From Opitutia bacterium (GTDB taxonomy: Bacteria > Verrucomicrobiota > Verrucomicrobiia > Opitutales > Opitutaceae), in the NCBI GenBank assembly GCA_947478395.1, contig CANJVR010000001.1:512001-576000 (forward strand): a stretch of DNA of 64,000 bases, read 5' to 3'. This document shows positions 15,470 through 35,372 of the stretch, one piece after another. The position numbers and the translations under genes are program-made. The notes beneath the pieces were generated by a model. It saw nothing but the letters and a program-made list of their open reading frames with translations, searched no databases and was not told the DNA's origin. The first letter of the stretch is position 1. Every line of letters begins with the position of its first letter.

Positions 15470-15638
15470 AGTTAAAGCGCCTCGAATTGAAAGCCGGCTT
15501 TTCCCCGGCGGCGGCATCCTCCCGGCTCTTACAGTTGCGGCGGATGCGGACGCCGTTGAGGTCGCCATCGACGCGAAACGATAAGACCGCCTTCCGGTAC
15601 TTAAACCGGCTGACCGCAAACCTAGGTTAGAGGAGCAT
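15470..15638 (-). pseudogene. Decayed 5' remnant of an integrase related to the one at 24029-25276
   Basis: Translates MLL*PRFAVSRFKYRKAVLSFRVDGDLNGVRIRRNCKSREDAAA, versus intact MPQSAFTVTRFLNRNGVTSWRVDGRLHGLRIRRNFKTREEAGA; in-frame stop at codon 4, similarity lost after ~45 codons. Confidence 0.85.
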
Positions 15639-15701
15639 GCTTAGGTTACCGCGCCAACTGGGCAACCTAGCTTCGGATCTTATCCCCTCGGCGGCGAAAA
15701 A

Positions 15702-15726
15702 TGGCGGAGAGGGAGGGATTCGAACC
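15702..15726 (-). repeat. att site: duplicated 3' end of tRNA-Ser (25 bp)
   Basis: tggcggagagggagggattcgaacc is identical to 25341-25365. Confidence 0.95.
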
Positions 15727-15892: not shown

Positions 15893-16312
15893 TCACGTGT
15901 TCGCGACGCGATACGTTGGCTTGAAAAAGCCCACTGCACCTTTGCATTCGCGGAAGGGCAAAGGGCGGGCGTCTTCCAATACCCACCCCCACGGGGAGGT
16001 GTCTTTCCAGACCGAGCCATGCCGCCGCACGCAGGCCGTGATCGTGGCGACGCCGACGATGCCGCCGATGTCGTGCTCAAGCGGGATTTTGCGCCCGGCC
16101 CACGCGTTCCACTGCGTCCAGTCTTCTTCGTCGATGGCGGGGAACGTGGACGAGGCGTGGATGAGCACGCGTTTGGGCAACGTGACGAGGCGATAGGAGC
16201 GGTTTTCGATGTCCTTGATGCCTTGGGCAATCAGCCACGCCCACGGCTGGCGCACACTGAGGGCCATCAGGGATTTTTTGTCGTCGTTCCAGGTCGCGGT
16301 GCGGGAGTTCAT
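15893..16312 (-). CDS. ASCH domain protein
   Basis: ALSVRQPWAWLIAQGIKDIENRS, VLIHAS, GGIVGVATITAC, GWVLEDARPLPF..KG. Confidence 0.9.
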   Translation of the reverse strand: MNSRTATWNDDKKSLMALSVRQPWAWLIAQGIKDIENRSYRLVTLPKRVLIHASSTFPAIDEEDWTQWNAWAGRKIPLEHDIGGIVGVATITACVRRHGSVWKDTSPWGWVLEDARPLPFRECKGAVGFFKPTYRVANT

Positions 16313-16404: not shown

Positions 16405-19071
16405 CTACACCTTCGCCGCCGAATCCGTCCAGGCGTAGCCGTTGACCGGAAGCCCCACCGCCGCGAAGTGCTTCTTGCCGCACGCGATTTTCTGCCGCTC
16501 GTCCGCGTCGAGTTCTTCCAAGCGGGTCGCTCCTTTGGTTTCGCGCACGAGATAAAGGCGCGGCGGCTCGCCGGGCACTTCCTTCACAATCGCCCAGTCC
16601 GGATTGTAGGTGCCGACCGGCGTCTCCACTTGGAACCACCAGGGCAACTTCACAAAAAGCTTCACGTCCTGCCGCGCTTCCAGATCTTGCGCGAATTTGC
16701 GCTCCACTTCGGAATCGCACTCCACGCCGTCGTATAAACCGGCGCGGGGCGTCGTTTGCACGCGCGCGAGGTAGGGCTCCAGCTCCTTGTCGCGGAACCA
16801 CATCATTTCCCACGCGGCATCCGTGCCGCCGAGGCGCTCGTATTGCACGCCTTCAACCAGCAGGGCGCGTTTCTTCATCTCGATTTCGGAGGCGGCGATT
16901 TCGATCAGCCGTTGGGGATTGATCGCTGCCTCGTGGAGTCGGCCGCTCTCGCGCAAGATGGCGGCGAGCGTGGTGCGGGTGAGTTCGGTGCGGCGTTGCA
17001 GCTCGGTGAGGAAATCCGGCAGCGCCACCGGTGCCGCCACGCGGCCCGCGTCGTAAGTGCTGTGCACTTCCTCCACGACACCGTCGCGCGTGGGCTGGAT
17101 GGCCGCGCTCGCCACCGTGATGCGCCCGGCCTCGATCGTCTCGGGCCGCGCCCGAATTGCCGCCGCCGCCTCGGTTATAAGGCGCGGCGTCGCGTAGGTG
17201 ACGGCGTAGCGGGTGCGGTGTTTGATGCGCTCCCACAGGGCGAGAAACTCCGGGTCGGCGTCCCAGCCTTTGCGCAGTTTTAGCTTTTTGCGCTTCCGGG
17301 CGTTGTTGATGAGTCGCGCGTTGAAACGCACCCCGGCGTCCTCGAACTCGGCTTGCAGGCCGCGCGCGAAATCCTCGAAGGCTTCGCTCGCGATGAGCGT
17401 GAGCCGGTTGAGCGCGGCGTCGTGGCAACGCGTGCCGTCCTCGCGCACCGGCAGGCGCAGGCCGCGGCCGATGGTCTGGCGGCGTTCGCGCTCGGTGCCC
17501 ATCTCGCGCAGGGAGCAAATTTGAAACACGTTGGGGTTGTCCCAGCCTTCGCGCAGCGCCGAGTGGCTGAAGATGAACCGCACCGGCTCCTCCGCCGAGA
17601 GCAGGCGCTCTTTGCCGCGCATGATGAGCGCGAAAGCCTCGTCGTCGGCCTGCGTGCTTTTCTCCTTCGAGTCCACCGCTTGGCCCGCGCGTTCGGCGAA
17701 GTAGCCTTTATGCACCTGTGCCACTGGCGGCAGCGCGAGCGTGGAAAACTCCGGCGACACGCGCAGCGCCTCGTATTCGGCCTCGAACCACACGCGCACC
17801 TTGCCCTCCGCTTCCGCGTAGTGGGCCACGCGGTCGAGGAAGAAGAGCGACAACACTTTCATGCGCTGGCCGGCCGGGAGCTTCGCGATGGCCAGTTCCT
17901 TTTCAAAATGCCGGCGAATGGTCTGCCGCACTTGCACGCGCTGGATCGCGTCGTCGAGCGCGCCGCTGCCTTCGCCGAGGCCGAGGGAAAACTGGCCGAG
18001 GTCGATACGTTCGCGCCCCGGTTGGGCGTCGATGCCACGCACGAGCAGGCCGGCGTAGAGGGCGCGGTTGGCCTTGGCGGCGAGGTCGTCGCCGTGCTTC
18101 ACCGTCACGTCCTTGCGCTCGATGCCCTTCGCCGTCTGCACGTCGAGTTCCAGCTTGGCGGTGATGCCGCGCGCGCCGGGGATCGCTTTCTTGAACCGCA
18201 CGTAGGGTCGGTTGAAATCCCCCTCTTCGCGCACGCTGTCCACCTCGATGGCTTTCACGAGGCGCAGCTCGAAGGCGCGCACCGGGTCGAGTTGGTAAAC
18301 CAGATTGTAGGCGTATTTGTGGGTGGCGGAGTAGCGCAGCGTGCAGAGCGGATCGAGGCTGGCGATGGCGGCGCGGGCGCCTTCGCTTTCCAGATTCTGC
18401 GGCTCATCAAGGACGACCACGGGACGCGCCGCTTGCAGGAACTCGATGGGGCGTTGGCCGCCGAGGCGGTCGTGCGGGTTGTTGAGGATGTTCGACGCCT
18501 TGTCGAAGGCCTGGATGTTGAGCACCAGAATCTGCAGGCCGGGGCTGGTGTGAAAATGCCGGAGGCGGGAGACCTGCGCCGAATCGTAAACCCACGCCTC
18601 CAGCGGCGCGTTGTCGTAGAGCGCGCGGAAGTGATCCCGCATGAGGTCGATGCTCGTCATCACGCCTTCGCGGATGGCCACGCTGGGCACGACGACGATG
18701 AACTTGCGCCAACCGTAGCGGGCGTGGAGTTCGAGGATGGTGCGCAGGTAAACGTAGGTTTTGCCCGTGCCGGTCTCCATCTCGACCGAGAAGTGCGACC
18801 CGGCCCACGGTGTCTCGGCCAGTTCGGCGCGAGCCGTGTCGGCATGGGTGGCGAAGGTGCGGGCCTGCACCGCGCGGAGGTTGGCCTCCAGCCGAGTGGT
18901 ATCGAGATCGAGCCGGTTGCCCGCGCCCAGCTCGGTGATGAGTTGATCAACCGCTGCCAGCGGCTGCGCCTCAAACGCCCCGCCCGCCGGGCGCTGGCCG
19001 TCGAAGAGCTCGACCACGGCGCGGATGGCGTCGGCTTGGAAGGCTTGCGAGGGGTCGAACTGGATTTTCAT
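16405..19071 (-). CDS. res: Type III restriction endonuclease (Res subunit)
   Basis: SVEMETGTGKTYVYLRTI, VVLDEPQ, LRYSATH, FIFSHSALREGWDNPNVFQIC, QTIGRGLRL, YNPDWA, VRETKG; start MKIQFD overlaps the rhuM stop (ATGA). Confidence 0.95.
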   Translation of the reverse strand: MKIQFDPSQAFQADAIRAVVELFDGQRPAGGAFEAQPLAAVDQLITELGAGNRLDLDTTRLEANLRAVQARTFATHADTARAELAETPWAGSHFSVEMETGTGKTYVYLRTILELHARYGWRKFIVVVPSVAIREGVMTSIDLMRDHFRALYDNAPLEAWVYDSAQVSRLRHFHTSPGLQILVLNIQAFDKASNILNNPHDRLGGQRPIEFLQAARPVVVLDEPQNLESEGARAAIASLDPLCTLRYSATHKYAYNLVYQLDPVRAFELRLVKAIEVDSVREEGDFNRPYVRFKKAIPGARGITAKLELDVQTAKGIERKDVTVKHGDDLAAKANRALYAGLLVRGIDAQPGRERIDLGQFSLGLGEGSGALDDAIQRVQVRQTIRRHFEKELAIAKLPAGQRMKVLSLFFLDRVAHYAEAEGKVRVWFEAEYEALRVSPEFSTLALPPVAQVHKGYFAERAGQAVDSKEKSTQADDEAFALIMRGKERLLSAEEPVRFIFSHSALREGWDNPNVFQICSLREMGTERERRQTIGRGLRLPVREDGTRCHDAALNRLTLIASEAFEDFARGLQAEFEDAGVRFNARLINNARKRKKLKLRKGWDADPEFLALWERIKHRTRYAVTYATPRLITEAAAAIRARPETIEAGRITVASAAIQPTRDGVVEEVHSTYDAGRVAAPVALPDFLTELQRRTELTRTTLAAILRESGRLHEAAINPQRLIEIAASEIEMKKRALLVEGVQYERLGGTDAAWEMMWFRDKELEPYLARVQTTPRAGLYDGVECDSEVERKFAQDLEARQDVKLFVKLPWWFQVETPVGTYNPDWAIVKEVPGEPPRLYLVRETKGATRLEELDADERQKIACGKKHFAAVGLPVNGYAWTDSAAKV

Positions 19072-20126
19072 GCGGCGGGGTCTTCGTCGGGCTTGCCGGG
19101 TTTCTTGGGCGGCAAGCGCTCGGCCTTCTTCAAGCGGCGCACGTGCTCCTCGAAATCTTTTTCCACCGGCGTCAATTCCGCCCCCGCAGCAAGCTGGCGC
19201 TGGCGGTATTTCTGCCACTCCCGTGCGGCCAGTTCTTGCGCGAGCTGGGCCGAAACCTTGCCGAGCCCGGGAAGGATGTCGCGGTCGTTGACCGTGAGGA
19301 AGGCATCGAGCTTCCGGTTCCAGTCCGCCATGCGCATGGTCTTCTTCGACATGGCTTGGAGTTCGCCGAAATCGATGAACTGCGAGACGAGGCGCTCCAG
19401 GATTTCCAGCTCCTCCTTGGTGAGGTAGTTTTTGGCCACGCCCACGTCTTCACGACGCGGTTTGGGGCCCTTCCACGTCATCAGCCCGGCGTAGGGTTTT
19501 TCGGCGCTGACGCGCTCGGCGATCAACTCGGCGGCGGTGTGCCCGTGCGTCGCCCAGTGGAGCTTGTTTTGCACGCGGGCGAAGAAGTGATCCGCCTCGG
19601 CCGTCTTACGGTCGTAGTCCACGCTGGTGGAAAACAGATCGAGCACCTTTTGATAAAACACCCGCTCTTCGAGCCGGATCGCCCGGATGCGCCGGAGCAA
19701 CTCCTCGAAGTAAGGGTTGCCCTGCTTCATGCGTTCATCGTCCAAGGCAAACCCCTTGAGGATATACTCGCGCAGGGTCTTGGTCGCCCAGATGCGGAAC
19801 TGCGTGCCGCGCGGCGACTTTACCCGGTAGCCCACCGAGATGATGACATCGAGGTTGTAGAACTCGATCTTGCGCAGCACCTCGCGCCCGCCCTCGGTTT
19901 GAACTGTTGCAAATTCTGCAACAGTTCCCGCCTGCTCCAACTCCTTCTCTTCGTAAACATTACTGATGTGGCGGGAGATCACAGACTTATCACGGTCAAA
20001 CAACTCCGCCAGCTGGTTAAGGCTCAGCCACACCGTGTCGCCTTGGAGAACGACATCCACCTTCACCGCGCCGTCTTCGGAGCGGTAAAAAATGATTTGG
20101 GATTCGGGGGGCGGTTGGTCGGGCAT
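19068..20126 (-). CDS. Virulence RhuM-family protein
   Basis: TVWLSLNQLAELF, ISRHISNVY, YNLDVIISVGYRVKS..GTQFRIWAT, FFARVQNKLHWA..GHTAAELI, AKNYL. Confidence 0.9.
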   Translation of the reverse strand: MPDQPPPESQIIFYRSEDGAVKVDVVLQGDTVWLSLNQLAELFDRDKSVISRHISNVYEEKELEQAGTVAEFATVQTEGGREVLRKIEFYNLDVIISVGYRVKSPRGTQFRIWATKTLREYILKGFALDDERMKQGNPYFEELLRRIRAIRLEERVFYQKVLDLFSTSVDYDRKTAEADHFFARVQNKLHWATHGHTAAELIAERVSAEKPYAGLMTWKGPKPRREDVGVAKNYLTKEELEILERLVSQFIDFGELQAMSKKTMRMADWNRKLDAFLTVNDRDILPGLGKVSAQLAQELAAREWQKYRQRQLAAGAELTPVEKDFEEHVRRLKKAERLPPKKPGKPDEDPAA

Positions 20127-20138
20127 GGTGGCGAGCGC

Positions 20139-22040
20139 TTACACCGTTTGGAACTGGATGCCGTGGCTTTTCATTTCGAGCACGGTGTTCGTCTTGAGCT
20201 CGTCGTTGCCGTGGAAACCCACGTCGAGGCAGAGCACGCGCTTGGGCGCGAGGGCGATGACGCCGCGCAAGCCTTCGCGGGTGAGCGTGCGGCCGAGGCA
20301 GATGACGAGTGCGCCCGCCGCGAGCAGGTGAACGGGCTGACCCGCCACGGTGCGCACCTCCACCGGCGAGCCGAGGGTGATGCCGGGGTGGCCGCACTTG
20401 AGGAGGATCTCCGCGAGGAGGTCTTCATCGCTGCGGCCGTCGTGGACGTTGTGGGCCATGAGTTCGAGCTGCCGGGCGAGCCCCTCGCCGTCGCGCGGCG
20501 CGGCCTCGCCGTCCCACACTTTGAAGTTGGACTCGTCGAGACGGTAGGCACGAAAACCCTCGGCGCGGGTGCCGCCGGTGGCGAGGTCGGCCTGGCGGCG
20601 TGCGATCACCCGGCGCACGCGCTCGCGGGTGATGTCGGCGATGGTCGGGAAATCGGTGCGCCCGGTTTTTTCGGGGAGCTGCACGAGGATGAATTTGCGG
20701 TCGCCGCCGTCCTGGCGGTTCAGCTCCAAAACGGCCTGCGCCGTCGTGCCGCTGCCGCCGAAGAAATCGAGGATCAGGTCGTCGGGTTTGCCGAGCTGAA
20801 GCAAAGTTTGAAGTAGCGCCACAGGCTTTGGCGCTTGGAACAGACCCGGCTTCACCAAATCATCGAAAACTGCCTGACCCTTCTCGGTGTGGAAGTCTCG
20901 GTCGATGAAAATGGTTTTAAGCTTTTTGCGCACGACTTCTCCATCGGCGTTAACTGGTCTTGCTTTGCGATATACCTTCCATCGCCCGTTTACCTGCCGA
21001 GCGTAAAGGTCGGCGCTTTCGGATTTCACTTTTGGCTCACCCCATGTCCAGCAACCTTCAAACCCGTCTTCCCACTTGGGCCAAATTTCAATGGGAGTTT
21101 CACTGCTGTGCTCTAACGAAACTTTGCCCGTGCTGGGGTTCGCGAAAATAGCATACCAAAGTTTGCGACGATTATGTCGGCCAAACTGACGATGCGTATT
21201 GCGCAATTCTAGAGAGCGGAAGGCTCCCTTCTCGTCGAACTCATCGAACTCATCGCGGATTTGATCGGCTGATTTCTCCACTCCTAAATCCTCTTCGAGA
21301 TACCCCTTGGAATATATGAGAACTAAATCATGGGTTCGTGCGAAATGAGGATCCAGGACACGACCTTTGGGGTTGGTTTGAACCGTTACCTGCGCCACGA
21401 AATTCTCCTCCCCGAACACCTCGTCCATGAGCAGGCGGAGGTTGTGGACCTCGTGGTCGTCGATGGAGACGAAGATGACGCCGTCGTCGCGCAGGAGATT
21501 GCGGGCGAGGGCGAGGCGCGGGTGCATGAGCTTCAGCCAATCGCTGTGGTAGCGGCCGCTGGTCTCGGCATTGGTCGAGAGCGTTTGCCCGGTGATTTCT
21601 TTGTAGTGGGCCACGCCGGCGCGGAAATCGTCGGGGTAAACGAAGTCGTTACCGGTGTTATACGGCGGGTCGATGTAGATGAGTTTCACCGCGCCGGCGT
21701 AGGCCGACTGGAGCAGTTTGAGGACGTGCAGGTTGTCGCCCTCGATGATGAGGTTTTCCGTCGCATCCCACGCGACCGAGGCGGCGGCATCGGGTCGCAA
21801 GGTGCCGTGACTGGGGGCGAGCGTCTCGCGCAGGGCCTCGGCGCGACCGGCGTAGGAGAGCCCGTAGCGTTCGGGCGAGGACGATACGGCGGCGGCGCCA
21901 ACCAGCTCGGCGAGGCGGGCGGGCACGAGTTTACCCTCGGCAAAAGCGCCGGGCAGAAGCTCGCGAAGACGAGCGAGGCGCTCGGCGGCGAGATCGGGTG
22001 AAGTGAGGGGCAGGCGCGCGGGCTTGGCAGAGTCACTCAT
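20139..22040 (-). CDS. mod: Type III R-M N6-adenine DNA methyltransferase (Mod subunit)
   Basis: NLIIEGDNL, IYIDPPYNTG, PKPVALL, ILDFFGGSGTTAQAV; start at MSDSAK. Confidence 0.95.
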   Translation of the reverse strand: MSDSAKPARLPLTSPDLAAERLARLRELLPGAFAEGKLVPARLAELVGAAAVSSSPERYGLSYAGRAEALRETLAPSHGTLRPDAAASVAWDATENLIIEGDNLHVLKLLQSAYAGAVKLIYIDPPYNTGNDFVYPDDFRAGVAHYKEITGQTLSTNAETSGRYHSDWLKLMHPRLALARNLLRDDGVIFVSIDDHEVHNLRLLMDEVFGEENFVAQVTVQTNPKGRVLDPHFARTHDLVLIYSKGYLEEDLGVEKSADQIRDEFDEFDEKGAFRSLELRNTHRQFGRHNRRKLWYAIFANPSTGKVSLEHSSETPIEIWPKWEDGFEGCWTWGEPKVKSESADLYARQVNGRWKVYRKARPVNADGEVVRKKLKTIFIDRDFHTEKGQAVFDDLVKPGLFQAPKPVALLQTLLQLGKPDDLILDFFGGSGTTAQAVLELNRQDGGDRKFILVQLPEKTGRTDFPTIADITRERVRRVIARRQADLATGGTRAEGFRAYRLDESNFKVWDGEAAPRDGEGLARQLELMAHNVHDGRSDEDLLAEILLKCGHPGITLGSPVEVRTVAGQPVHLLAAGALVICLGRTLTREGLRGVIALAPKRVLCLDVGFHGNDELKTNTVLEMKSHGIQFQTV

Positions 22041-22997
22041 TTGTAAAAGCCGATAAAACAGACGGATGACCGAGGCCGTCAACGCTGCGCGCGGGCGAAT
22101 TTGCCGATGCATCAAAACGCGCGTGAATGGCGGTCGTTGCATCGCGCCGGGGGCTAGGCCCGGCGCAAGGCCGGAGCGGGAGCGCAGGCCGGGCGCTTCG
22201 CGACGGCGGCGGAGATCCGCGCTAGCGGGTCGGAGACGACGCCGCGAGGCGTAGGGGCAACCCCGACTAAGTCGGGGGCGCAGCCGCGACGTGTCGAGGC
22301 GGAGTGCCGGGGCGCGGGGGGCGGAGGAAGCGCCTTTTCACGCCGGAACGGTCGGCGTCGGCTCGGAGCGCAGCTCTTAGGCGTAGCGGAGAGGCGACGG
22401 CGTCCGTGGAGGCGTTTCGATCAGGACGTGGAATGTGGGTGACCGCGCGCAGCGCCGCCCCGGCCTGACCGGGGCGAGCGCGCGGGCACCGCGAGAGCCG
22501 GGCCATGCGGACCCGGCCGTAGGTCGCGCCAGCGACCGGAGCCGCAGGCCGAGACGTGAGCGCAGCGAACGCGAGCGGGCACGCCGACCCGCCGCCACGG
22601 CGCAGAGCGTGAGCGAACGCCGTGGTTTGCGCGGCGGTTGAGGCGAGCCCGGTAGCCTGCCGGGCGCAGCGGGGTCCCCGCCGGTCTGAACAGGACGGGC
22701 GCGACTCAGGCGTCGGGAGCGTAGCGGACGACGGCTGTGACGCGACGGCGCGGGCCCACGGAGCGCCGCTTCGCGCGGGCCACTGCACCGCGCAGGCCGT
22801 CCCCGGCGGGGTTGCACTCCAGAGGACGGAGCGGCTTGGCCCGGAGCGCGCGAGCGCGGAGGGCTGGGCGGGCCGGAGGCGCGACCACCGCGGAGGAGCA
22901 AGCAGACGGCGTGACAGGCCGGAGGCTCGGCGCAGGGCTGGCGCGACGTGTGCCGCTTGGTTGATTGGGCGGTTTTTCGCGGGCGATTTCGACTCGC

Positions 22998-24014
22998 CGA
23001 ATACCACCGCGTGTCCCACCGGAATACCACCCGGTATCCCGTCCCCTAGCACCTGGGACACGAACCCGGGTGCTAGACCGGGACATATCCCGGGATCTAT
23101 TCTTCTAAAGAAGAAGGGGGAGAGCATCGCTATCGCTCTCCCCACTTCTTTCGGCGGGACAGACAAACCGCGCGGCGTCGAGGTCGGTGTCCCAGGCGGC
23201 GGCATGGCGTGGGTTGCGCCGTGTGCGCGCCCGGAGTCACCTGACACTAAGCGTCACTTTTGCCGAGGTGACGCTAAGGGCGACACTAGCGACTGACACT
23301 ATTCTTCTAAAGAAGAAGGGAGCGAGCTACGCTATCGCTCGCCTCCCTTCTTTCGACGGGACGGAGCCGAGCCGCGCGCGTCGTGCGGAGTGGTTGGCTA
23401 CGTTGTGGCGCGAGGTGGCGCGGCGCGACGTGGTTGGCCTTGGGTAACCCACGAAGGACGGCGAGGCGGCGTGGGTGACGAAACGAGGTAGGGCGCAAAC
23501 TGCACCTGTCTTCACCTGCTTGCATCTAGCTACTCAATAGCGTTTTGCGGGCGATTTAAGCCGTCGATTTCGAGGCGGGCGGCGTTGCGGCAACCATGTA
23601 TCCCCTGCCTCCTTTGCGTGGCGTAAAACGAACGCGCGGGCCATTGGGCGCGATTCTGGAAGCCGGGTTGCGGGCGCGATTCGTTGCGTCGGTTTGAGGG
23701 TTGGGTGGCAGGCGTCGCGGTGCACCACGGCGGGTGCGTGGTGGGGTTTGCGCGGTGTGTGCGACGGGACGCGGCATGGGGGCGGCGTGGCCTGGCTGGG
23801 TCATGAACCACGGCGGCGCGCGCGGCTTTTCCGTTTGCCCGTCGAAAGAAGGTGGGGGAGGAGCAAAGCGATCTCCTCCCCACCTTCTTCTTTAGAAGAA
23901 TAGCACCAGGTGCTGCACCAGTCTTAGCACCACCCCCATTTCACTGGTGCTTAGAACTGGGGTGGTGCCGGGAAAAACCACCTCGGCGCCACCCTGGTGC
24001 TCGCGGTGGTGCCG
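22998..24014. repeat. Three related structured modules (two direct, one inverted) with identical 21-bp core CTATTCTTCTAAAGAAGAAGG; putative origin/priming sites
   Basis: Core at 23097-23117 (+), 23299-23319 (+) and 23883-23903 (-). Each core is followed by a GC-rich hairpin and CTTCTTTCG(A/G)CGGG...CCGCGCG, and preceded by its own cluster of 6-7 bp repeats. Confidence 0.85.
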
Positions 24015-24028
24015 GGTGGCGCGGGAGG

Positions 24029-25276
24029 TCACGCCGCCCGCGAAAGCGGCGCGGTTTCGGCAGAGCGGTCACACGTGACCGGATCGACGTGGGCGGCTGC
24101 GGGTTGGACGTGCATGGCGGGCGCGGTCGAGGCGGGGACGATGTTGAAAAACGCCTCGGCTTCGGCGGGCGTTTTTAGGTCGAGGTAGTGTTTGCGGATG
24201 ATCGACTCGGAGTTGCCCGCCTGGAGCGCGGCCTCGCCCATCGAACGATACTTGGCGACGTGCATCGAGATGAACGTGTGCCGCATGATGTCGTGCGAGA
24301 GCGTGAACTTTTCCGCGACGGCGGCGCGGGTGTGTTGCAGGTTGGCGGGGATGATCGGGAAGCGGTCGAGCGGGTAAGCGCGGAGCCACGCGGCGAGGTT
24401 GGGCTGGATGGTGACGGCGCGTTTCATGCGGACTTTCGAGACCTCGGGTTCGATGAGGATGACGCCGGTATCAAGGCGCACGTGTTCGGGGCGGAGTTTG
24501 AGGATCTCCCCCGTGCGCACGCAGGGGCGGATTCCTGCGAAGAGGGCGAGGGCGAAGAACGGCACGAGCGAGCCGCCGTCGATCTGTTCAACGTGGTGCA
24601 TGAGTGCGGTGGCTTGCGCGGCGCTGAGCGTGGTCGCGGAGCCGCGCCGGTGGGCGATGCGGAGGTGGGGGACTTTTTCGAGGGGGTTGGCGGCGACCCA
24701 GTCTTGGCAGAACGCGAATTTGAAGAACGTGAAGAGCACGCCGCGACGGTTGTTAAACGTCTTGGGCTTCGGGTTGCCCAGCTGGCAATGCGCGGCAAGG
24801 GCTTCGCGGGAGAGCGTGGAGAGCGGCTGGCCGGGGAAGGCGGAGACGAGGTTTTCCAGGCGGATGCGGATGTCCTTGAGTTGGCAGGTGGAGAGCATGC
24901 CTTGCGCCTCCTCTTTTTTCTTGGACGCGAGATAAGCGGTGACGGCGGCATCGACGGTGATCTCGCGCTCGGGGGCGCGGTAGTTGGCGAGGGCGTAGTC
25001 GAGGTAGAACGCGAGGGGCTTGGGCGCGTCGGCGAGGCGGCGAAACGCGGCCTCGGATTGGCGGAGCTGGTCGTCGGTGAGGAAGGTGGAGGCGCTGCGG
25101 ACGTTGCTGGCGGCTTGCGCGGCCTTGGCTTCGAGGGCGGCGCGTTCGGCTCCGGCCTCCTCGCGGGTTTTGAAGTTCCGGCGGATGCGGAGGCCGTGAA
25201 GACGGCCATCGACTCGCCAAGAGGTGACGCCGTTGCGGTTGAGAAACCGGGTAACGGTGAATGCGGACTGCGGCAT
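24029..25276 (-). CDS. Tyrosine recombinase / integrase
   Basis: Catalytic residues: FAGIRP (R), SKV (K), HDIMRHTF (HxxR), AGNS in place of GHS, RKHYL (Y); adjacent to tRNA. Confidence 0.93.
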   Translation of the reverse strand: MPQSAFTVTRFLNRNGVTSWRVDGRLHGLRIRRNFKTREEAGAERAALEAKAAQAASNVRSASTFLTDDQLRQSEAAFRRLADAPKPLAFYLDYALANYRAPEREITVDAAVTAYLASKKKEEAQGMLSTCQLKDIRIRLENLVSAFPGQPLSTLSREALAAHCQLGNPKPKTFNNRRGVLFTFFKFAFCQDWVAANPLEKVPHLRIAHRRGSATTLSAAQATALMHHVEQIDGGSLVPFFALALFAGIRPCVRTGEILKLRPEHVRLDTGVILIEPEVSKVRMKRAVTIQPNLAAWLRAYPLDRFPIIPANLQHTRAAVAEKFTLSHDIMRHTFISMHVAKYRSMGEAALQAGNSESIIRKHYLDLKTPAEAEAFFNIVPASTAPAMHVQPAAAHVDPVTCDRSAETAPLSRAA

Positions 25277-25308: not shown

Positions 25309-25340
25309 GCGGGCGAAAACTCCTCGTCAGAGGAGAAAAC

Positions 25341-25430
25341 TGGCGGAGAGGGAGGGATTCGAACCCCCGGTGACCTTTCGGCCACACCTGATTTCGAGTC
25401 AGGCGCGTTAGACCACTCTGCCACCTCTCC
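25341..25430 (-). tRNA. tRNA-Ser(CGA)
   Basis: ggagaggtggcagagtggtctaacgcgcctgact-CGA-aatcagg, long variable arm, ggttcgaatcc, CCA end. Confidence 0.97.
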
Positions 25431-28581: not shown

Positions 28582-29328
28582 CTAGCCGCGACGCCGGGCG
28601 ACCAGCACCAGGCTCACGCCAAAAGGAAATGGCACACGCCACATCGCCAAGCGGACGAAGATGGCGCGCAGGAGATCGTTGATCGGCCGGGCCGGCTCCC
28701 GATCTTCCGAACGACCCGCCGGCGCCGGCCGGCCCAGACGTTTCTGCAGCGTCCGCAATTTTCGCACCCACCAGACGGCCGGATAAACGACGACGTTGGT
28801 GTAGTTAACGTGGATCAGTTCCCACCTATCGCTGGTAAAAAGCGCCCGCAGTTGCGGCCGCCTATAACGTCGAAAATGATGCAGCGCCTCGTCCCAGTCG
28901 CTCCACAAAGCCATACTCGCCGGCACCGTCACGAGGGCGATCCCGCCCGGGCTCAGCAGCCGATGAAAACCGCGCACCATCGCCGCGTCGTCCGGCACAT
29001 GTTCGAGCACATCGAGCGCGGTCACGAAATCGAGCGAAGCATCGGGCAGCGGCACGGCATCGCCCGCGAGGCTCAGAATTTGCTCGGGCCGGAAGCGAGT
29101 CCGGAGCAAGCGCAACGCCTCCGCATGATCGTCGAGGACTAGCACGCGGCAATGAGCCTCCATTTCCTTCGCGAAAATTCCCGTGCCCGCACCGCAGTCG
29201 AGCAACACGTCGGTCGGTTGCGGCGGGCGCGCCCGCTGCAGCCAAGCCCGGACCAGAGCGCGTTTGCCGGAGTAGTACCAGTGCGTGCGTTCGACGCATT
29301 CGAGGTTGCTGTATTCATCGGCGTTCAT
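28582..29328 (-). CDS. Class I SAM-dependent methyltransferase (surface-glycan-associated type)
   Basis: ERTHWYYSGKR, LLDCGAGTG, LDVLEHVPDD, TVPA..LWSDWDE..HHFRRY, PFGVSL; start MNADEY. Confidence 0.85.
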   Translation of the reverse strand: MNADEYSNLECVERTHWYYSGKRALVRAWLQRARPPQPTDVLLDCGAGTGIFAKEMEAHCRVLVLDDHAEALRLLRTRFRPEQILSLAGDAVPLPDASLDFVTALDVLEHVPDDAAMVRGFHRLLSPGGIALVTVPASMALWSDWDEALHHFRRYRRPQLRALFTSDRWELIHVNYTNVVVYPAVWWVRKLRTLQKRLGRPAPAGRSEDREPARPINDLLRAIFVRLAMWRVPFPFGVSLVLVARRRG

Positions 29329-29394
29329 GCGGCGGGTTCGGACTTGTGGGAGCGTCAGCGCGCCCCGAGATTGAGTCCACGATTTTGTCCCGTA

Positions 29395-31425
29395 ATGCCT
29401 GAACCCGCCCTCCGGCTGCGTCGCCAGCTTATCGTTTTCTCCGTCGCCGCCATTCTGGCGCTGCACTTCGTCCTGGCGGTCGCGAGCAAGCGGCAAGAAA
29501 GCACCACCGCCGACGAGATCGCGCACCTCACCGCCGGCTTCGCGTACTGGCAATTCGACGACTACCGACTGCAGCCGGAAAACGGCAATCTGCCGCAACG
29601 CTGGGCCGCGCTGCCGACGTGGCTGAGCGGCGCCACGTTTCCAAAATTAGCGGACAACAACTACTGGCGCACGAGCGATGCGTGGGGCGTCGGCCACCAG
29701 TTTTTTTATGAAACGGGCGAAGACCATTTCCCGCGGTTGATGGCCGGGCGCGCGATGATCGCACTGTTTAGTGTCGGCACCGGGTTGATTATTTTTATTT
29801 GGTCGCGGCGTTTTTTCGGGACGGCCGGCGGCTTTGTTTCACTTTTATTCTATGCGTTCTGTCCCAACTTTCTCGCCCACGGAGCGCTGGTGACCTCGGA
29901 TGCGTGTATCACGTTTTTTATGCTCGCGAGCGTCGGAGCGTGGTGGCGCCAGCTGCACGACGGACGGAGGCGCGCGTGGTGGATGAGCGCCGCGATTTTC
30001 AGCCTCGCGTGCATCGCCAAGTATTCCGCGGTGCTGCTGATTCCGATGCTCGTTCTTCTGGGAACGGCGCGAATGCTAGGATCAGCGCCTCTTACTATTT
30101 GGGGCCGCACGTTTGTTACTCGCCGGAAAAAAATCGGCGCGCTCGTCGTGTCGGCGCTCGGTCATGGCGTTTTGGCCATCGCGACGATCTGGGCCGCTTT
30201 CGGTTTTCGCTATTCGGGATTCAGCCCGGCGCTGCCCGCTGCCGCGCATTTCCTTCAGCCGTTTGAAAGCGCCGTTGCCAGCATGGGCGCGCAAGGTCCG
30301 GTGGTGACCGTGCTCGCCGCATGGCACGCCCTGCCCGAGGCATTCCTCTACGGCTACGCATTCGTGCTCGAGATGTCGCAGCAACGCGCCGCCTACCTCG
30401 ACGGCGACTACAGTCTCACCGGCTGGGTGCGGTTTTTCCCGCTGGCCTTTCTTTACAAGAGCACGCCCGCGCTGCTCGTAGCGCTCCCGTTGGCCGGGTT
30501 GGTGGCGCGGCGCCGGCGATCAGACGCGGAGTCTGAGTCGTCGAAATCTCCGCGCGCCGCCCTCTACTCGGCGCTGCCGCTGCTCGTGCTCGTGGGCGTT
30601 TACGGCGCGTTTTCCCTGACGAGCCATCTCAACATCGGACACCGCCATCTGCTGCCGATTTATCCCGCGCTCTTCATTGCGACCGGCGCGCTCGGAGCGT
30701 GGGCGGCCAAACGGCGCGGCTTCGCGGTAGCGGTCGTCGCGCTACTGCTCTCGCTTCAAGGTGGAACCGCGTGGCGGATCTATCCGCACTACCTCGCCTA
30801 TTTCAATTTCATCGGCGAAGGCCCGGAGTTCGGCTGGCGGCACCTCAGCGACAGCTCGCACGATTGGGGCCAAGATTTACCCGGCCTCAAAACCTGGGCC
30901 ACGACCAACGTGCGCGTCGGCGAGCCCTTCTATCTCGCTTACGCGGGCTCGGGCGAACCCGACTACTACCAACTACCCGTACGCCGCCTGCTCATGGTAA
31001 ATGGTTTTCACCAGCCGCAGCCGTACCTCGAGCTCGAGCCCGGAACCTACGCCATCGGCACCACCGTGCTCTCCCACGTGTACGGCCAGGTGCGCGGACC
31101 GTGGACCCTCGAATGGGAAACCGAATACCAAAAGCTCCGCGCCCTCGAGCCGCTCTTTGCCGGCTATCACCGCGAGCCAAATCGCCGCGCCGAATTGTTG
31201 AAAGAGGCCCCGGCCGAAATTTGGGAGAGCGGCTGGAAGCGTTACAACCAACTGCGGTTCGCCCGGCTCTGTCACTACCTTCGCGTGCGTGCGCCCGAGG
31301 CCAACATCGGTCACTCCATCCTGATCTACCGGCTCAACGCCGATGAAATCAAAGCGGCGACGGCTGGTTCGCTGGCGGATTGGAGCGCGTTGATGGAGCG
31401 CACGATCAACGCGCGGCAGCCGTGA
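29395..31425 (+). CDS. ArnT/PMT-like (GT39/GT83, GT-C fold) membrane glycosyltransferase
   Basis: TM1 followed by TTADEIAHLTAG, PNFLAHGALVTSD, AKYSA, NIGHRHLLP, SDSSHDWGQDL; many TM segments; start MPEPAL. Confidence 0.8.
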   Translation: MPEPALRLRRQLIVFSVAAILALHFVLAVASKRQESTTADEIAHLTAGFAYWQFDDYRLQPENGNLPQRWAALPTWLSGATFPKLADNNYWRTSDAWGVGHQFFYETGEDHFPRLMAGRAMIALFSVGTGLIIFIWSRRFFGTAGGFVSLLFYAFCPNFLAHGALVTSDACITFFMLASVGAWWRQLHDGRRRAWWMSAAIFSLACIAKYSAVLLIPMLVLLGTARMLGSAPLTIWGRTFVTRRKKIGALVVSALGHGVLAIATIWAAFGFRYSGFSPALPAAAHFLQPFESAVASMGAQGPVVTVLAAWHALPEAFLYGYAFVLEMSQQRAAYLDGDYSLTGWVRFFPLAFLYKSTPALLVALPLAGLVARRRRSDAESESSKSPRAALYSALPLLVLVGVYGAFSLTSHLNIGHRHLLPIYPALFIATGALGAWAAKRRGFAVAVVALLLSLQGGTAWRIYPHYLAYFNFIGEGPEFGWRHLSDSSHDWGQDLPGLKTWATTNVRVGEPFYLAYAGSGEPDYYQLPVRRLLMVNGFHQPQPYLELEPGTYAIGTTVLSHVYGQVRGPWTLEWETEYQKLRALEPLFAGYHREPNRRAELLKEAPAEIWESGWKRYNQLRFARLCHYLRVRAPEANIGHSILIYRLNADEIKAATAGSLADWSALMERTINARQP

Positions 31426-31517
31426 AGGCGATGGCGAGGCCCACGCGAAATCACAGCCGACCACTCCGATGGAGAACCACCCGATTCAACGAGCGTCGTG
31501 CACCAGGCCCGGCGGCA

Positions 31518-33314
31518 TCATGGCGCCAGTTCCAACACCGCCGGCGGCTCCGGATCGACCGCGATCAGCCGGCTGAGCCGCGCCCAGCGTCCGCCGAAGC
31601 GTTTCTCGGCCAAGGTCTCGAGGTGAAAATTCGCCGGCAGATCGTCCTCGGGATCGACGCCGCGATCGCCCTCCGACGAAATTGGACGCAAAGCCTGCGC
31701 CACGATCACTTCCTTGAAGGTGCCCTGGAGTAGATGATACGCGATCTGGGGTCCGCGTTTCGCTCCGACCGTCGTGAGGATCGTCGGGATGCGCCAAAGG
31801 ACGAAGGGAATCGTTGATTTGTTGGAGAGAAACAGGATCGGTCCGCGGTGGCGCGTGAGGATATCGTGCTCCCATTCCACTTCGCGCATCAAGAGGTTCT
31901 CATCGGTGTACGATCGTTTCGCGATGACGGGTAGCGTGCCGATAAAAAGCCACGCGAGTAAACCGATGCCGGCGACCCGCAATCCCCACAGCTGCCAGCG
32001 GCCCAACCCACCCACCAACCGGGCCGCAAGCAACGCGAGCAACAGACACATCGGCAGCGCAAAGCGCGACGCGATCACGGCATCGAGCGCGCTCCAATAG
32101 TAGAACATCAACAGGGCGAGGTTGGCCGCGATCGTCCCGCCAAAAACGACCAGCACCAGCACGCCGGGCGCGAGCGCCGGCCGCGCCGGATTTCTCCACC
32201 AACGCACCCCGCCCACCGCGGCCCAGAGAATACCCAGCGCGCCAAGCAGGCTGAGATAAAAAGAATTGGCGAGCGCCGGCGTGCGGTTGAAAAAAAACGC
32301 CCAGGCGCCTTCGAGGTTCTCGCGCACATATCCGAGCCCAAAACGCGCCGTCTGTCCCGCCTTGAGCTGCCACAACACCGGCGTCGCTGCCAGCACACGA
32401 TTATGCCACGCGTACGGAATCAGCAGCATAGGCGCCACGATCACCGGCCACGGCAGGAGCACCCTTCCCGCCCGCAGCCAGCCCGCGAGCACGACAATCG
32501 CCACCGGCACGACAAAGATCACCGACTCATAGCGGCTCTGCGCCAGCAGCACCGCGCCCAACGCCAGCGCGGCGAGCCGGTCCCGGTCCGGCGCGCGCAG
32601 ATAGAGCGTGGCCAGCACGCACTCCACGAGAATCAAAGTAAGATTGTGCAACTCCATGCCGGCCCCGCTGGCGTTTTGAGCGAGTAACGGCAGCGTCGCC
32701 AACAAACCGAGGCTCAGCAGCGCAGGCCCGCGGCCGGCCAGTTCCCGCGCGAACCAATACGCCAGCGCGAAAAAAATCGGCGTCAGCGCCACGTTTACGA
32801 CGAAAATATTGGCCCCGCGAAACCCCGTGAGGTCGTGCAGGAGCGACACGAGAAAGACGAAAAAATACGGCCGCTTGTCCACGAATGCATCGATGGTGAG
32901 CCAGGTGCCCTCGATCTCGTACGCGCGCACGGGGGCGCCGTACTCCTTGGTCGCATGCATGTGCTGCGCCGTCGCCTCCAGCACATATTCGTCGAACAAA
33001 ATTTTATGGCCGAATGGATCCGCCGAAAGCGTGAACAACGTCGCCGCCAACAAAACCAAGCCGGCCAGGCCGGGCCGACGAACCCAGCCCACCACCACGT
33101 TCCAGCGCGACTGGACGATGCGCGTGGCATAAAACACGAAGAAGCCAAACACCCCCAAAATGTAATAGTAGGCTCCACCCACGATCCACGCCTTCACTTG
33201 CAGCGGCGTGAAAACGACGAAGCCGAGCACCAGCGCCAGGACCGCGGCGAGCGCGAGCAGGAGTAACCGCGCACGCGCGGAGGGGTCATTGAACAACGAA
33301 AAGAGCGCGCGCAT
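31518..33314 (-). CDS. Polytopic membrane protein, putative GT-C glycosyltransferase (paralog of the next gene)
   Basis: KILFDEYVL..HMH, DKRPYFF..LVSLLHDLTGFR, AQSRYES; >10 TM segments. Confidence 0.7.
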   Translation of the reverse strand: MRALFSLFNDPSARARLLLLALAAVLALVLGFVVFTPLQVKAWIVGGAYYYILGVFGFFVFYATRIVQSRWNVVVGWVRRPGLAGLVLLAATLFTLSADPFGHKILFDEYVLEATAQHMHATKEYGAPVRAYEIEGTWLTIDAFVDKRPYFFVFLVSLLHDLTGFRGANIFVVNVALTPIFFALAYWFARELAGRGPALLSLGLLATLPLLAQNASGAGMELHNLTLILVECVLATLYLRAPDRDRLAALALGAVLLAQSRYESVIFVVPVAIVVLAGWLRAGRVLLPWPVIVAPMLLIPYAWHNRVLAATPVLWQLKAGQTARFGLGYVRENLEGAWAFFFNRTPALANSFYLSLLGALGILWAAVGGVRWWRNPARPALAPGVLVLVVFGGTIAANLALLMFYYWSALDAVIASRFALPMCLLLALLAARLVGGLGRWQLWGLRVAGIGLLAWLFIGTLPVIAKRSYTDENLLMREVEWEHDILTRHRGPILFLSNKSTIPFVLWRIPTILTTVGAKRGPQIAYHLLQGTFKEVIVAQALRPISSEGDRGVDPEDDLPANFHLETLAEKRFGGRWARLSRLIAVDPEPPAVLELAP

Positions 33315-33364
33315 CGGTTCAGAATTTTGAATCGAACGACGCAGATTTTACCGGGACGCAGGCT

Positions 33365-35233
33365 TCAAGGCAGCTGCTGCAGAAAATTAGCGATGTAATC
33401 GCGGCGAAGTTTTTCGATTGTCGCGCGATCTTTCGGCACGGGCCGCAACGATGTGTCACCGCTTTTGACGATTTGCTCGCCCGCCCGAATGCTCTTCAAC
33501 CGGCTCATCCGCGTGAGCGTGAGCGCTTGCAGACGTTCCTCGCGCACCGTCTCGAGTTCAAAATCCGGCCCGAGATCGTCGCCTTCACGGTAGGCCATTT
33601 TGCCCGTCGACGGATCGATGTTGAGGCGTTGAAAAACAAATATGTCGGAAAACGTGCGATTGCGCAGATTCCACACCATCATTTCGCGGCGGTTGCGGGC
33701 CTGCTCAATGGGGGTCGCGGAAACCTGATGGGTGATCCAAAGGATCGAGTCGTTGTCGATCACGAGATAATCGCGCCGCGGCTGGTCAGCGATAAAGGCG
33801 CGGCGCCACGCCGTCTCCCGGCCCGGCAAATATTCCTGGCTGTAAGCGTGCGCCGCCATCGAAGGTACGCCTTGGACGAGCACGGCGACCACCGCGACGC
33901 CGAGAAGAATCCGCGCCACCGGGCCGCGCGCGAGCTGCGGCAAAATGGCCAGAATCGCGATCACCATTCCCAAGTGCGTCGGCAGACTGAGGCGACGTAT
34001 AACGGGATCGTCGAAGCGCCCCCAGAAGTAACACATCATCAGCCCAAATTGAGCGATGAACCCGATCGCAAAAAATGAAGTGAGGACCACCGCGGGTGTT
34101 TCGCGCCCCAGCGAACGAAATCGTTTCACCAGCAGCAGCAGAAAAAACGGCACGGCCATCGCACCCAAGGCCGAGAGCAGAAGCGAATTGGGTTGATCGG
34201 TGGCTTTGCCGAAAAAAAATGCCAGCGCGTGGGTGAGATTATCCGGAATATATTCGAATGAAAATGGCTTCGTGTAGCCCGGCTGGCTGAACATCTGCCA
34301 GGACGACCCGCGCAAATCGAATATTCGATGATGCAGCGGATAGTGCACGAACAGCAGCGGAGCGAGCACGACTGGCCACGACATCACCGGCCGTCGCTCG
34401 AGCCACCAGACCCAGCCCACCGTGAGCGCGACGGGCAAAAGATAAACCACCGATTCGTACCGAACTTGCGCCAACAGCAGGCCGGAAAAGAAAAACGCCG
34501 TAAACGTCGCCTCATCGCGTCGGGTCACGAAGCGCACCCCCAGCAGCATCGTGCCAAGAATCATCACCAAGTTGAGCAATTCGAATCCGCCGCCCGTGGC
34601 GTTGTGCGCCAGCAGCGGCAGGCCGGCCCACAAGGCGACGCCAATCCAACCCGCGATCCGGCCGGCCAGCAGTCGGCCCGTGAGATTGACGAGCCAGAGA
34701 AAAATCGCCGTGAGCACGCCATTGAGCAAAAACGCATTGGTCGGCCGGTAGCCGGTCAGGTCATGGACCAGCGACTCGAGAAACGGAAAGAACAGAGGAC
34801 GCTTATCCAGCACGCCATCGATGATCGCGAACGTTCCCTGAATGTCGTTACCGCGAATCGGCGTCAGCGCCGTGCGGTCGAAGTGCATGCTCATCGACGT
34901 GCCGAGCAGCATGATTTCATCCATCACGATTTTGAACCCGAAGCCTTCGTGAACCATCAGTACCGAAACACCGATAGCGATGACTCCCACCGAAGCCCAA
35001 TCCACCGTCCGCCATGACCAAGCCAGTGCTTCGGTCCTAAACCCCAACCACAGAGCGACCGAAAACATCGCAAAGGTCACGAGCATCAGCCAATAGCCGG
35101 CATGCGTGACAAAAACCACCGCGGCCGCGTCGGGCACGAGAGCAAAGCTCAGCGCCAGTGCGAGCAAAGTTGACGCGACAAACAGCCAAAACCGCAGGCC
35201 GAGACTGAGATTTTTCACCAGGGAGGATGACAT
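33365..35233 (-). CDS. Polytopic membrane protein, putative GT-C glycosyltransferase
   Basis: KIVMDEIML..SMH, DKRPLFF..LESLVHDLTGYR, AQVRYES; start MSSSLV. Confidence 0.7.
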   Translation of the reverse strand: MSSSLVKNLSLGLRFWLFVASTLLALALSFALVPDAAAVVFVTHAGYWLMLVTFAMFSVALWLGFRTEALAWSWRTVDWASVGVIAIGVSVLMVHEGFGFKIVMDEIMLLGTSMSMHFDRTALTPIRGNDIQGTFAIIDGVLDKRPLFFPFLESLVHDLTGYRPTNAFLLNGVLTAIFLWLVNLTGRLLAGRIAGWIGVALWAGLPLLAHNATGGGFELLNLVMILGTMLLGVRFVTRRDEATFTAFFFSGLLLAQVRYESVVYLLPVALTVGWVWWLERRPVMSWPVVLAPLLFVHYPLHHRIFDLRGSSWQMFSQPGYTKPFSFEYIPDNLTHALAFFFGKATDQPNSLLLSALGAMAVPFFLLLLVKRFRSLGRETPAVVLTSFFAIGFIAQFGLMMCYFWGRFDDPVIRRLSLPTHLGMVIAILAILPQLARGPVARILLGVAVVAVLVQGVPSMAAHAYSQEYLPGRETAWRRAFIADQPRRDYLVIDNDSILWITHQVSATPIEQARNRREMMVWNLRNRTFSDIFVFQRLNIDPSTGKMAYREGDDLGPDFELETVREERLQALTLTRMSRLKSIRAGEQIVKSGDTSLRPVPKDRATIEKLRRDYIANFLQQLP

Positions 35234-35372
35234 TAACGAAGATCGAGGCCTGCAGCAGAAAGAAGTAACGCGGGGCAACCTTCAATCGCCGCGAACGCGG
35301 GCATATCTGAAGCGTAAATCTCGCCGGAAACCACGGGGCTAACGTCGCTGGAAGGACTGGCGCGGGGCAAAT

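Follow-up and report, generated by a model that had tools for sequence, protein, structure and literature searches.

We found an att-bounded island of 9,670 bp at a tRNA-Ser gene of a freshwater bacterium (Opitutia), within a window of 64,000 nucleotides, that encodes a tyrosine integrase as its sole lifecycle protein and carries three replication origin modules with different iterons. Judged by their similarity to single origins elsewhere, the three modules are origins of different helper types, the helpers being prophage-like elements that carry one such module behind a primase-helicase gene (Rep). The island lies outside every satellite family tested and is most likely a multi-helper replication hitcher. 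It is probably a minimal satellite that is excised, replicated and perhaps also packaged in trans by several seemingly tail-less helpers. Its parts are of known kinds; new are their combination and the dependence on helpers to which it points. The borders and protein genes of the island are the following.

25341..25430, minus strand: tRNA-Ser(CGA), the integration target, whose 3′ end (about 25335-25365) forms the attL core
24029..25276, minus strand: tyrosine integrase, 70% identical to one helper integrase
20139..22142, minus strand: Type III methyltransferase (Mod), cargo; the true start is probably after the first ATG
19068..20126, minus strand: RhuM-family protein, cargo (PADLOC PDC-S05)
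16405..19218, minus strand: Type III restriction subunit (Res), cargo
15893..16279, minus strand: ASCH-like small protein, cargo (weak Pfam match, below the cut-off)
15696..15726, minus strand: attR, a 31-bp, 97% copy of the tRNA 3′ end

The intact integrase gene and the att sites show that the island integrates by means of this enzyme. As the earlier note on this DNA had claimed, the island contains neither Rep nor a primase, and the same holds for its genome: a profile of 38 Rep homologues, which reached 1e-301 in the positive control, gave a best E of 0.58 against all six frames. Helper head genes and the excisionase are absent from both the island and the genome, and the 77-aa HTH_17 excisionase-like gene that adjoins the integrase in helpers is missing beside the island integrase. 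No terS was found in the island. The 2 kb between integrase and cargo are non-coding and hold no conserved small ORF; a conserved ORF that could explain the repeats was looked for, and none was found. Overlapping long ORFs in this region were rejected as genes and regarded as shadows, because they contain frameshifting indels and their variation is not biased by codon position (68/70/67 for the longest). Just past attR, at 15522-15695, lies the start of a second element with a 33-codon integrase stub, left over from an earlier tandem insertion at this tRNA.

We then compared the three modules, each of which consists of an iteron block and an invariant part.

22998..23096, plus strand: module 1 iteron block, proximal type A (GGGAYA / GG(A/T)(T/G)CTA) with distal AATACC repeats of type A2
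23097..23180, plus strand: module 1 invariant part with core (23097-23117), hairpin (23111-23150) and tail
23237..23298, plus strand: module 2 iteron block, TGAC(A/G)CTA, type C
23299..23384, plus strand: module 2 invariant part with core (23299-23319), hairpin (23313-23352) and tail
23814..23903, minus strand: module 3 invariant part with AT-rich core (23903-23883), long hairpin (23889-23846) and CGCT loop
23904..24014, minus strand: module 3 iteron block, TGGTGC(TA) in both orientations, B/D/E-like

The identical 21-bp core reported at 23097(+), 23299(+) and 23903(-) is present at exactly these positions, and modules 2 and 3 do converge. These are the only three copies in the 3.3-Mb genome, even with up to three mismatches allowed, and the same three modules are the sole strong matches of a module HMM. 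Each iteron cluster is exclusive to its type, as had been noted: upstream of the cores lie five GGGAYA-type repeats in module 1, four YGACRCT repeats in module 2 and six TGGTGC repeats in module 3, with no repeats of the other types, against a genome background of 0.04-0.07 per 100 nt. The type-specific repeats stand on one side of the AT-rich core, and the hairpin and a type-independent tail stand on the other; the last iteron reaches into the core and ends with its bases 1-3 (CTA). The tail of module 3 reads TTTCG..GGG..CCGCGCG, and its invariant part is oriented as in the helpers. The hairpins described earlier are real, but their description was too short: they comprise AAGAAG...CTTCTT plus the GC stem, 15-17 bp with a 9-nt loop, and extend into the core. 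Since the hairpin takes up half of the TTCTTCT-AA-AGAAGAA palindrome, the two structures are mutually exclusive. Across 21 modules, 97.5% of the stem cells are paired and the stem changes are two-sided in 31 cases and one-sided in none (0/500 shuffles as high), counts that are inflated by the kinship of the sequences; the CGCT was built into most of the search patterns. G-U pairs are never used in the variable stem columns.

Pattern scans for the module yielded 14 metagenome loci, 15 genome loci and 4 viral loci. Four of the genome loci (L053, L058, L059 and L062) contain no module and were dropped as chance matches; likewise, all four matches of the core 20-mer alone in viral contigs are chance occurrences in AT-rich coding DNA. 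A search of 400 genomes of the family found the module in eight besides that of the window and added three loci. In total, 28 loci have a single module, or 25 once three duplicates are removed. In 23 of these 25 distinct loci the module lies at the 3′ end of a primase-helicase gene, as had been proposed for autonomous relatives, and in the two exceptions (L035 and L048) the contig ends within 140 nt. The preceding gene encodes a 668-aa primase/RepA-like helicase of verrucomicrobial prophage-like elements, with 98-134 nt between its stop codon and the core (23 loci measured, redundant ones included), and a RusA-like gene follows the module in all single-module loci except L048 and L050. By position and homology, the modules are the origins of these elements. 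The earlier note had named a lack of any link to replication or mobilisation genes as one outcome that would speak against its reading; the link to replication genes is tight. Mobilisation in the oriT sense is not supported, as no relaxase was seen beside the module in any helper. Most of the loci are labelled Verrucomicrobia or Rariglobus, and two MAGs are labelled otherwise. Distant Rep relatives (L014-L033, 25-33% identity) have no recognisable core, and annotated phages and plasmids gave no module match.

Each module of the island resembles a different set of helper origins, with a shuffled maximum of 45% as the reference for iteron identity. The iterons of module 1 are 87% identical to those of the type A helper L009 and 48% to type B, and its hairpin is 100% identical to that of L009; its two distal AATACC repeats belong to a second helper type, A2. 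Module 2 matches type C helper origins with 71-76% in the iterons, and its hairpin is 100% identical to that of the type C helper L037. The iterons of module 3 reach 60-65% to types D, B2, E and B, and its exact helper was not found among the helper origins compared, the nearest of which stands at 65%.

We then investigated the Rep proteins. The middle of Rep is an AAA_25 helicase with RSF1010 RepA as its best PDB match (E 5e-5, profile search). Residues about 200-290 match the PrimPol AEP domain (E 0.009), and the N-terminal half is nearest to RepB_primase/PriCT clusters (0.96-0.97). The parallel with RSF1010 drawn in the earlier note is therefore apt for both the helicase and the primase part. 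The resemblance of the loops to CS-6 of single-strand origins, which the note also suggested, was set aside, since the origin reading does not require it. The last 90 residues are variable, and their predicted fold, helix-strand-helix-helix-hairpin (pLDDT 78), has a topology that fits a winged-helix-like domain. Structural matches to this domain are weak (Z up to 4.8) and mostly winged helices, and Foldseek returned nothing for it at E 0.001; the full-length predicted fold is poor (pLDDT 48) and has RecA-like matches only.

Iteron type co-varies with Rep, as the earlier note had suspected, and it tracks the C-terminal domain, not the helicase. In 13 helpers (the frameshifted L039 was left out), identity between iteron blocks rises with identity between the Rep C-termini (Spearman 0.73, Mantel p 0.0003) and between the 8-residue putative recognition helices (0.85); for the helicase part there is no such correlation (-0.06, p 0.67). 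Because of the kinship among the helpers and the similar habitats of many of them, these Mantel p values are overstated. In L009 and L055, for example, the helicase parts are 99% alike, the C-termini 48% and the iterons 45%. At least six iteron types are paired with helix variants of one Rep scaffold: H/NYxRKSD in type A, HSIRQPE in B, HNIRQPE in B2, T/ATIRRPE in C, TMIRQPS in D and HTIRHPD in E. Type B is represented by L055, type A2 by L036 and type E by L096, and the complete genome to which L055 and L057 belong has both types A and B. This strong covariation suggests that the iterons are read by a putative C-terminal winged helix. The trees agree with it in part. The C-terminal tree requires 6 type-label changes, the lowest number attainable (10/200 shuffles as low), and the helicase tree 7 (67/200); the C-terminal tree does not resolve type C as one clade, and the rejection of its monophyly for the helicase part is borderline (p-AU 0.049). 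There are 25 helix variants among 77 of 120 Rep homologues (P0001-P0120), and NYxRKSD (type A2) accounts for 48 of the 120.

The helpers share a gene order. On the left are the integrase, an excisionase-like HTH gene, two unknown genes and genes for a Sak4-like protein, an exonuclease, DUF669 and an SF2 helicase; these are followed by Rep, the origin, RusA, two small genes and a hairpin-rich gap, and then by terS, terL, portal, protease, scaffold, capsid, two 64-aa genes and cargo. The excisionase-like gene is present in eight helper loci and as a stub in L051, and was not found in L038, L043, L046, L060, L050 and L048. All seven head modules whose right side is visible continue into defence or other cargo, and no tail family was found among 25 hand-picked ORFs downstream of head modules, so the helpers may be capsid-forming satellites themselves, possibly of an undescribed lineage. 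A full head and packaging module, with no recognisable tail, connector or lysis genes, is seen in L057/L070, L071, L073, L091, L095, L097 and L098. Head-tail adaptor, connector and HNH genes, which belong to cf-PICI, were not found among the helper ORFs scanned, which include part of the small ORFs; the one weak head-closure match lies within a helicase-like cargo protein of 928 aa. In five helpers the capsid gene is followed by two conserved membrane-like ORFs of 64 aa that have no family match, and then by defence cargo.

Intermediates also occur. L094 and L051 encode Rep without head genes, and L050 has a truncated Rep; together, these three look like reduction steps from helper to island. 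L050 (1360-2526) consists of an integrase and the helicase and C-terminal domain of Rep, with no primase half, followed by a type A origin, and L048, from the same genome, holds a module that lacks RusA and lies near a Cas9-like gene. Both are candidates for intermediate or primase-borrowing elements. Two related elements stand in tandem at one tRNA-Ser in L093-L096, one with head genes and a type E origin and the other with a type C Rep and origin; in the latter, no head genes were found in 18 kb downstream. A head-encoding element of the same structural family (L072 / L098 / L099) has a Toprim-like primase and an AAA_25 helicase instead, indicating that head and replication modules are exchanged.

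Besides the island in the window, we found four Rep-less multi-origin islands (L038, L060, L046 and L043). None of the five encodes Rep in the available sequence, which is a 2.5-kb contig for L043 and is cut at the cargo ends in L038 and L060, and the two searched genomes with such an island (that of the window and G305) have no cognate Rep. What G305 does contain is an element with head genes, a Rep of another type and a related pre-terS segment. The whole 3.3-kb core of the window island is shared with L038 and L060 (93%, tRNA-Ser CGA) and with L046 (82-90%, tRNA-Ser GGA, different cargo), and L043, which is integrated at a tmRNA gene and has a more distant integrase, shows two converging modules on its contig. 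Thirty loci around the closest integrases contained no new multi-origin island. Over L038, L060 and L046, core plus hairpin are identical at 517 of 522 positions; integrase third positions in the same three relatives are 87-89% identical and two long non-coding tracts 80-93%. In contrast to these neutral-like sites, core and hairpin appear to be under purifying selection, and by this comparison the multi-origin islands form a family under selection. Whole iteron blocks have been exchanged (63% and 71%) while the sequence on either side of them stayed 89-100% identical: module 1 of L046 is now A2-like (74%), and module 3 of L038 and L046 is nearest to type E.

The island has three further features.

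22170..22995, plus strand: GC-rich non-coding tract with 13 GCGN(N)AGC mini-hairpin motifs antisense to the genes and 3 on the other strand
22078..22168, minus strand: pre-terS-like segment, 72-77% identical to the ~100 bp directly upstream of helper terS
23620..23638, minus strand: second motif copy CGCGCG(TTCG)TTTTAAGCC, a motif found just upstream of helper terS

The segment at 22078..22168 marks the border between conserved core and variable cargo, as the shared core stops exactly there, and on sequence grounds it is a candidate packaging site or late promoter. The pac sites of headful phages lie near terS. We consider it an even question whether this shared segment allows the helper terminase to package the island. 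The second copy of the central motif of this segment occurs between modules 2 and 3 in six elements (the window island, L046, L060, L043, L050 and L048), against a background of 0.13 per 10 kb. The non-coding stretch 23495-23681 between these modules is 67-70% like L050 and L048. A one-sided mini-hairpin tract precedes the pre-terS segment in islands (13-16 motifs) and in helpers with head genes (8-15); the two tracts are analogous in position and not homologous. Part of the island tract (22781-22960) matches at 77-87% sequences beside RAYT-like transposase and RHS-like genes of other genomes (L067, L068, L069), which suggests a REP-like mobile piece.

A cycle of the island can be proposed. 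In a cell with an active helper of the primase-helicase family, the helper excisionase may permit excision of the island. The helper Rep would then bind the iteron block that matches its recognition helix, open the AT-rich core and load its RepA-like helicase, and its RepB'-like primase would prime at the extruded hairpin; these steps are suggested by domain content and by analogy to SaPI and RSF1010. Three origin specificities would widen the set of usable helpers, like the several oriT mimics for staphylococcal plasmids, and the island may pay its way through its anti-phage cargo. The non-autonomous, multi-helper reading of the earlier note is supported by the adjacency to Rep genes and by the C-terminal covariation; replication in trans itself we infer. 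More speculatively, and rather less probable than the hitcher reading as such, the island could be a satellite of satellites. It would collect and exchange complete origins from a family of capsid-forming elements without tails, depend in trans on the excisionase, Rep and terminase of these elements and keep up with switches in Rep specificity by swapping iteron cassettes, giving three tiers of parasitism (tail donor, head-forming helper and multi-origin hitcher). No attP/attB joints were found in four runs (contigs only, possibly the source samples), in which the depth of the element equals that of its flanks; this proves little because contigs break at att repeats.

The main rival is that the modules are a decoy or incompatibility array, which titrates or stalls the Rep of incoming helpers and protects the host without any spread of the island. 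Cloned phage origins act as resistance elements in lactococci, the island has defence cargo, three specificities would cover several invaders, and excision was not seen in the contig-level reads. A sponge needs iterons only, however, and it is the type-independent core and hairpin that are most conserved (517/522). Moreover, nearly the same island core is found in different genera, at two tRNA-Ser genes and beside different cargo, which requires horizontal spread. We therefore regard a pure decoy as unlikely, although the decoy and hitcher roles may coexist. Somewhat less probable still is a relic, in which successive helper integrations at tRNA-Ser followed by deletions left three functionless origins. 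Elements often integrate in tandem and decay at this site, as the integrase stub past attR illustrates, L051 and L050 are decayed helpers, and G000 (the genome of the window) and G305 lack a cognate Rep. Functionless remnants are difficult to reconcile with purifying selection on core and hairpin beyond neutral-like sites, or with iteron blocks that were replaced symmetrically once the islands had diverged. It also speaks against a relic that almost no coding DNA of Rep and RusA is left around each origin, and that the distant L043, integrated at a tmRNA gene, has its modules in the same convergent arrangement.

Two other readings have very little probability. In one, the island is a conjugative hitcher of the iOriT type, and relaxases acting in trans use the modules or the GC-rich tract as origins of transfer. 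Islands with an integrase, a cis site and defence cargo are described as common in the available text of a preprint (bioRxiv 10.64898/2026.01.13.699239), and the hairpin-rich tract at 22170-22995 has no helper homology. The natural neighbours of the modules are nevertheless primase-helicase and RusA genes in terminase/capsid elements, and the plasmid match is limited to a 40-nt GC stretch at chance level outside the cores. In the other, the least probable of all, the modules are an array of structured small RNAs or terminators. Stable hairpins are followed by CTTCTTT, and one was scored as terminator-like, but an Rfam search returned only two tRNAs and left the modules unmatched, a promoter scan found no sigma-70-like promoter, and the terminator count is 4 versus 3.3 in shuffles. 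In addition, the absence of G-U pairs from variable stem columns and upstream repeats that track a DNA-binding domain both argue against an RNA. The replication hitcher stays the preferred reading.

The helper Rep and origin are the SaPI design on a different helicase, with an RSF1010-like hairpin. In SaPI/PICI pri-rep-ori, as far as the accessible text goes, the origin lies directly 3′ of the primase-helicase, whose C-terminal winged helix reads element-specific iterons (PMC9371898; PMC6092414). The helper origin likewise lies 3′ of a fused primase-helicase gene and has short iterons in both orientations, but the helicase is RepA/AAA_25-like and not of the SaPI type, and PICI iterons flank the AT-rich region on both sides, whereas here they occupy one side opposite the hairpin. 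Like PICI and SaPI, the island has an integrase and lies between att sites at a fixed place in the chromosome; it differs in having three origins in place of pri-rep, alpA, xis and terS. RSF1010 (IncQ) oriV, in the portions of the sources available, involves RepA, RepB', RepC and ssiA/ssiB (PMC8567376, PMC13037366). The helpers resemble it in the RepA-like helicase, the RepB'-like primase and the combination of iterons with a conserved hairpin, a likely priming signal; unlike RSF1010, they have one fused polypeptide without a separate RepC, one hairpin per origin instead of two ssi sites, an integrative, chromosomal and capsid-linked context, and no sequence match to plasmids. According to the available part of PMC10085698, cf-PICI have an integrase, a replication module, terS, terL, portal, protease and capsid and show no tails, as do the helpers; the differences are a portal and protease of other PHROG families, the pair of 64-aa membrane-like genes behind the capsid gene and a size over 20 kb.

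The nearest known logic is multi-subtype oriT mimicry, reported for staphylococcal oriT mimics of pWBG749-family plasmids in the accessible text of PMC8136818. With oriT mimics and iOriT islands taken together, the common features are protein-less cis sites copied from helpers, a constant core with variable specificity repeats, a specificity that a few residues of the helper DNA-binding protein switch, and an integrase with defence cargo. The sites captured here, unlike theirs, are replication origins of capsid-encoding elements; iOriT islands are recognised by oriT homology to a relaxase-encoding helper, whereas the module homologues flank primase-helicase genes.

Beta- and deltasatellites of plant viruses need a helper for replication. 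A 2023 statement, in the available text of PMC10690885, is that all known phage satellites use their own replicases, capsid-encoding exceptions aside. Within what is accessible of them, MiniFlayer/MulchRoom (PMC10690885) and some VEIMEs (PMC9618062) resemble the island in depending on a helper for replication; the former, satellites in Streptomyces, encode capsids and have no origin described, the replication mechanism of VEIMEs is left open, and neither is described there with several origins of different specificity. The accessible portions of reviews and surveys (PMC11389934, PMC10085698, PMC6092414, PMC9618062, PMC10690885) mention helper-dependent replication and satellites lacking replication genes, and captured-origin arrays are absent from these portions. 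A literature search, whose coverage is short on subscription papers and supplements, found no description of an integrase-only multi-origin island. Protein-based satellite finders would miss such an island, which would pass for a defence island that is inert. Replication hitchers have a recognisable signature in origin cores that recur with different iterons, in parallel with oriT-only islands. The iteron types and helix variants offer a natural, testable code for initiator-origin coevolution, which would be useful for orthogonal replicons in Verrucomicrobia.

Elsewhere in the window, the region 29152-35278 encodes large polytopic membrane proteins and a methyltransferase-like ORF; these ORFs appear glycosyltransferase-like by eye and are unrelated to the island.
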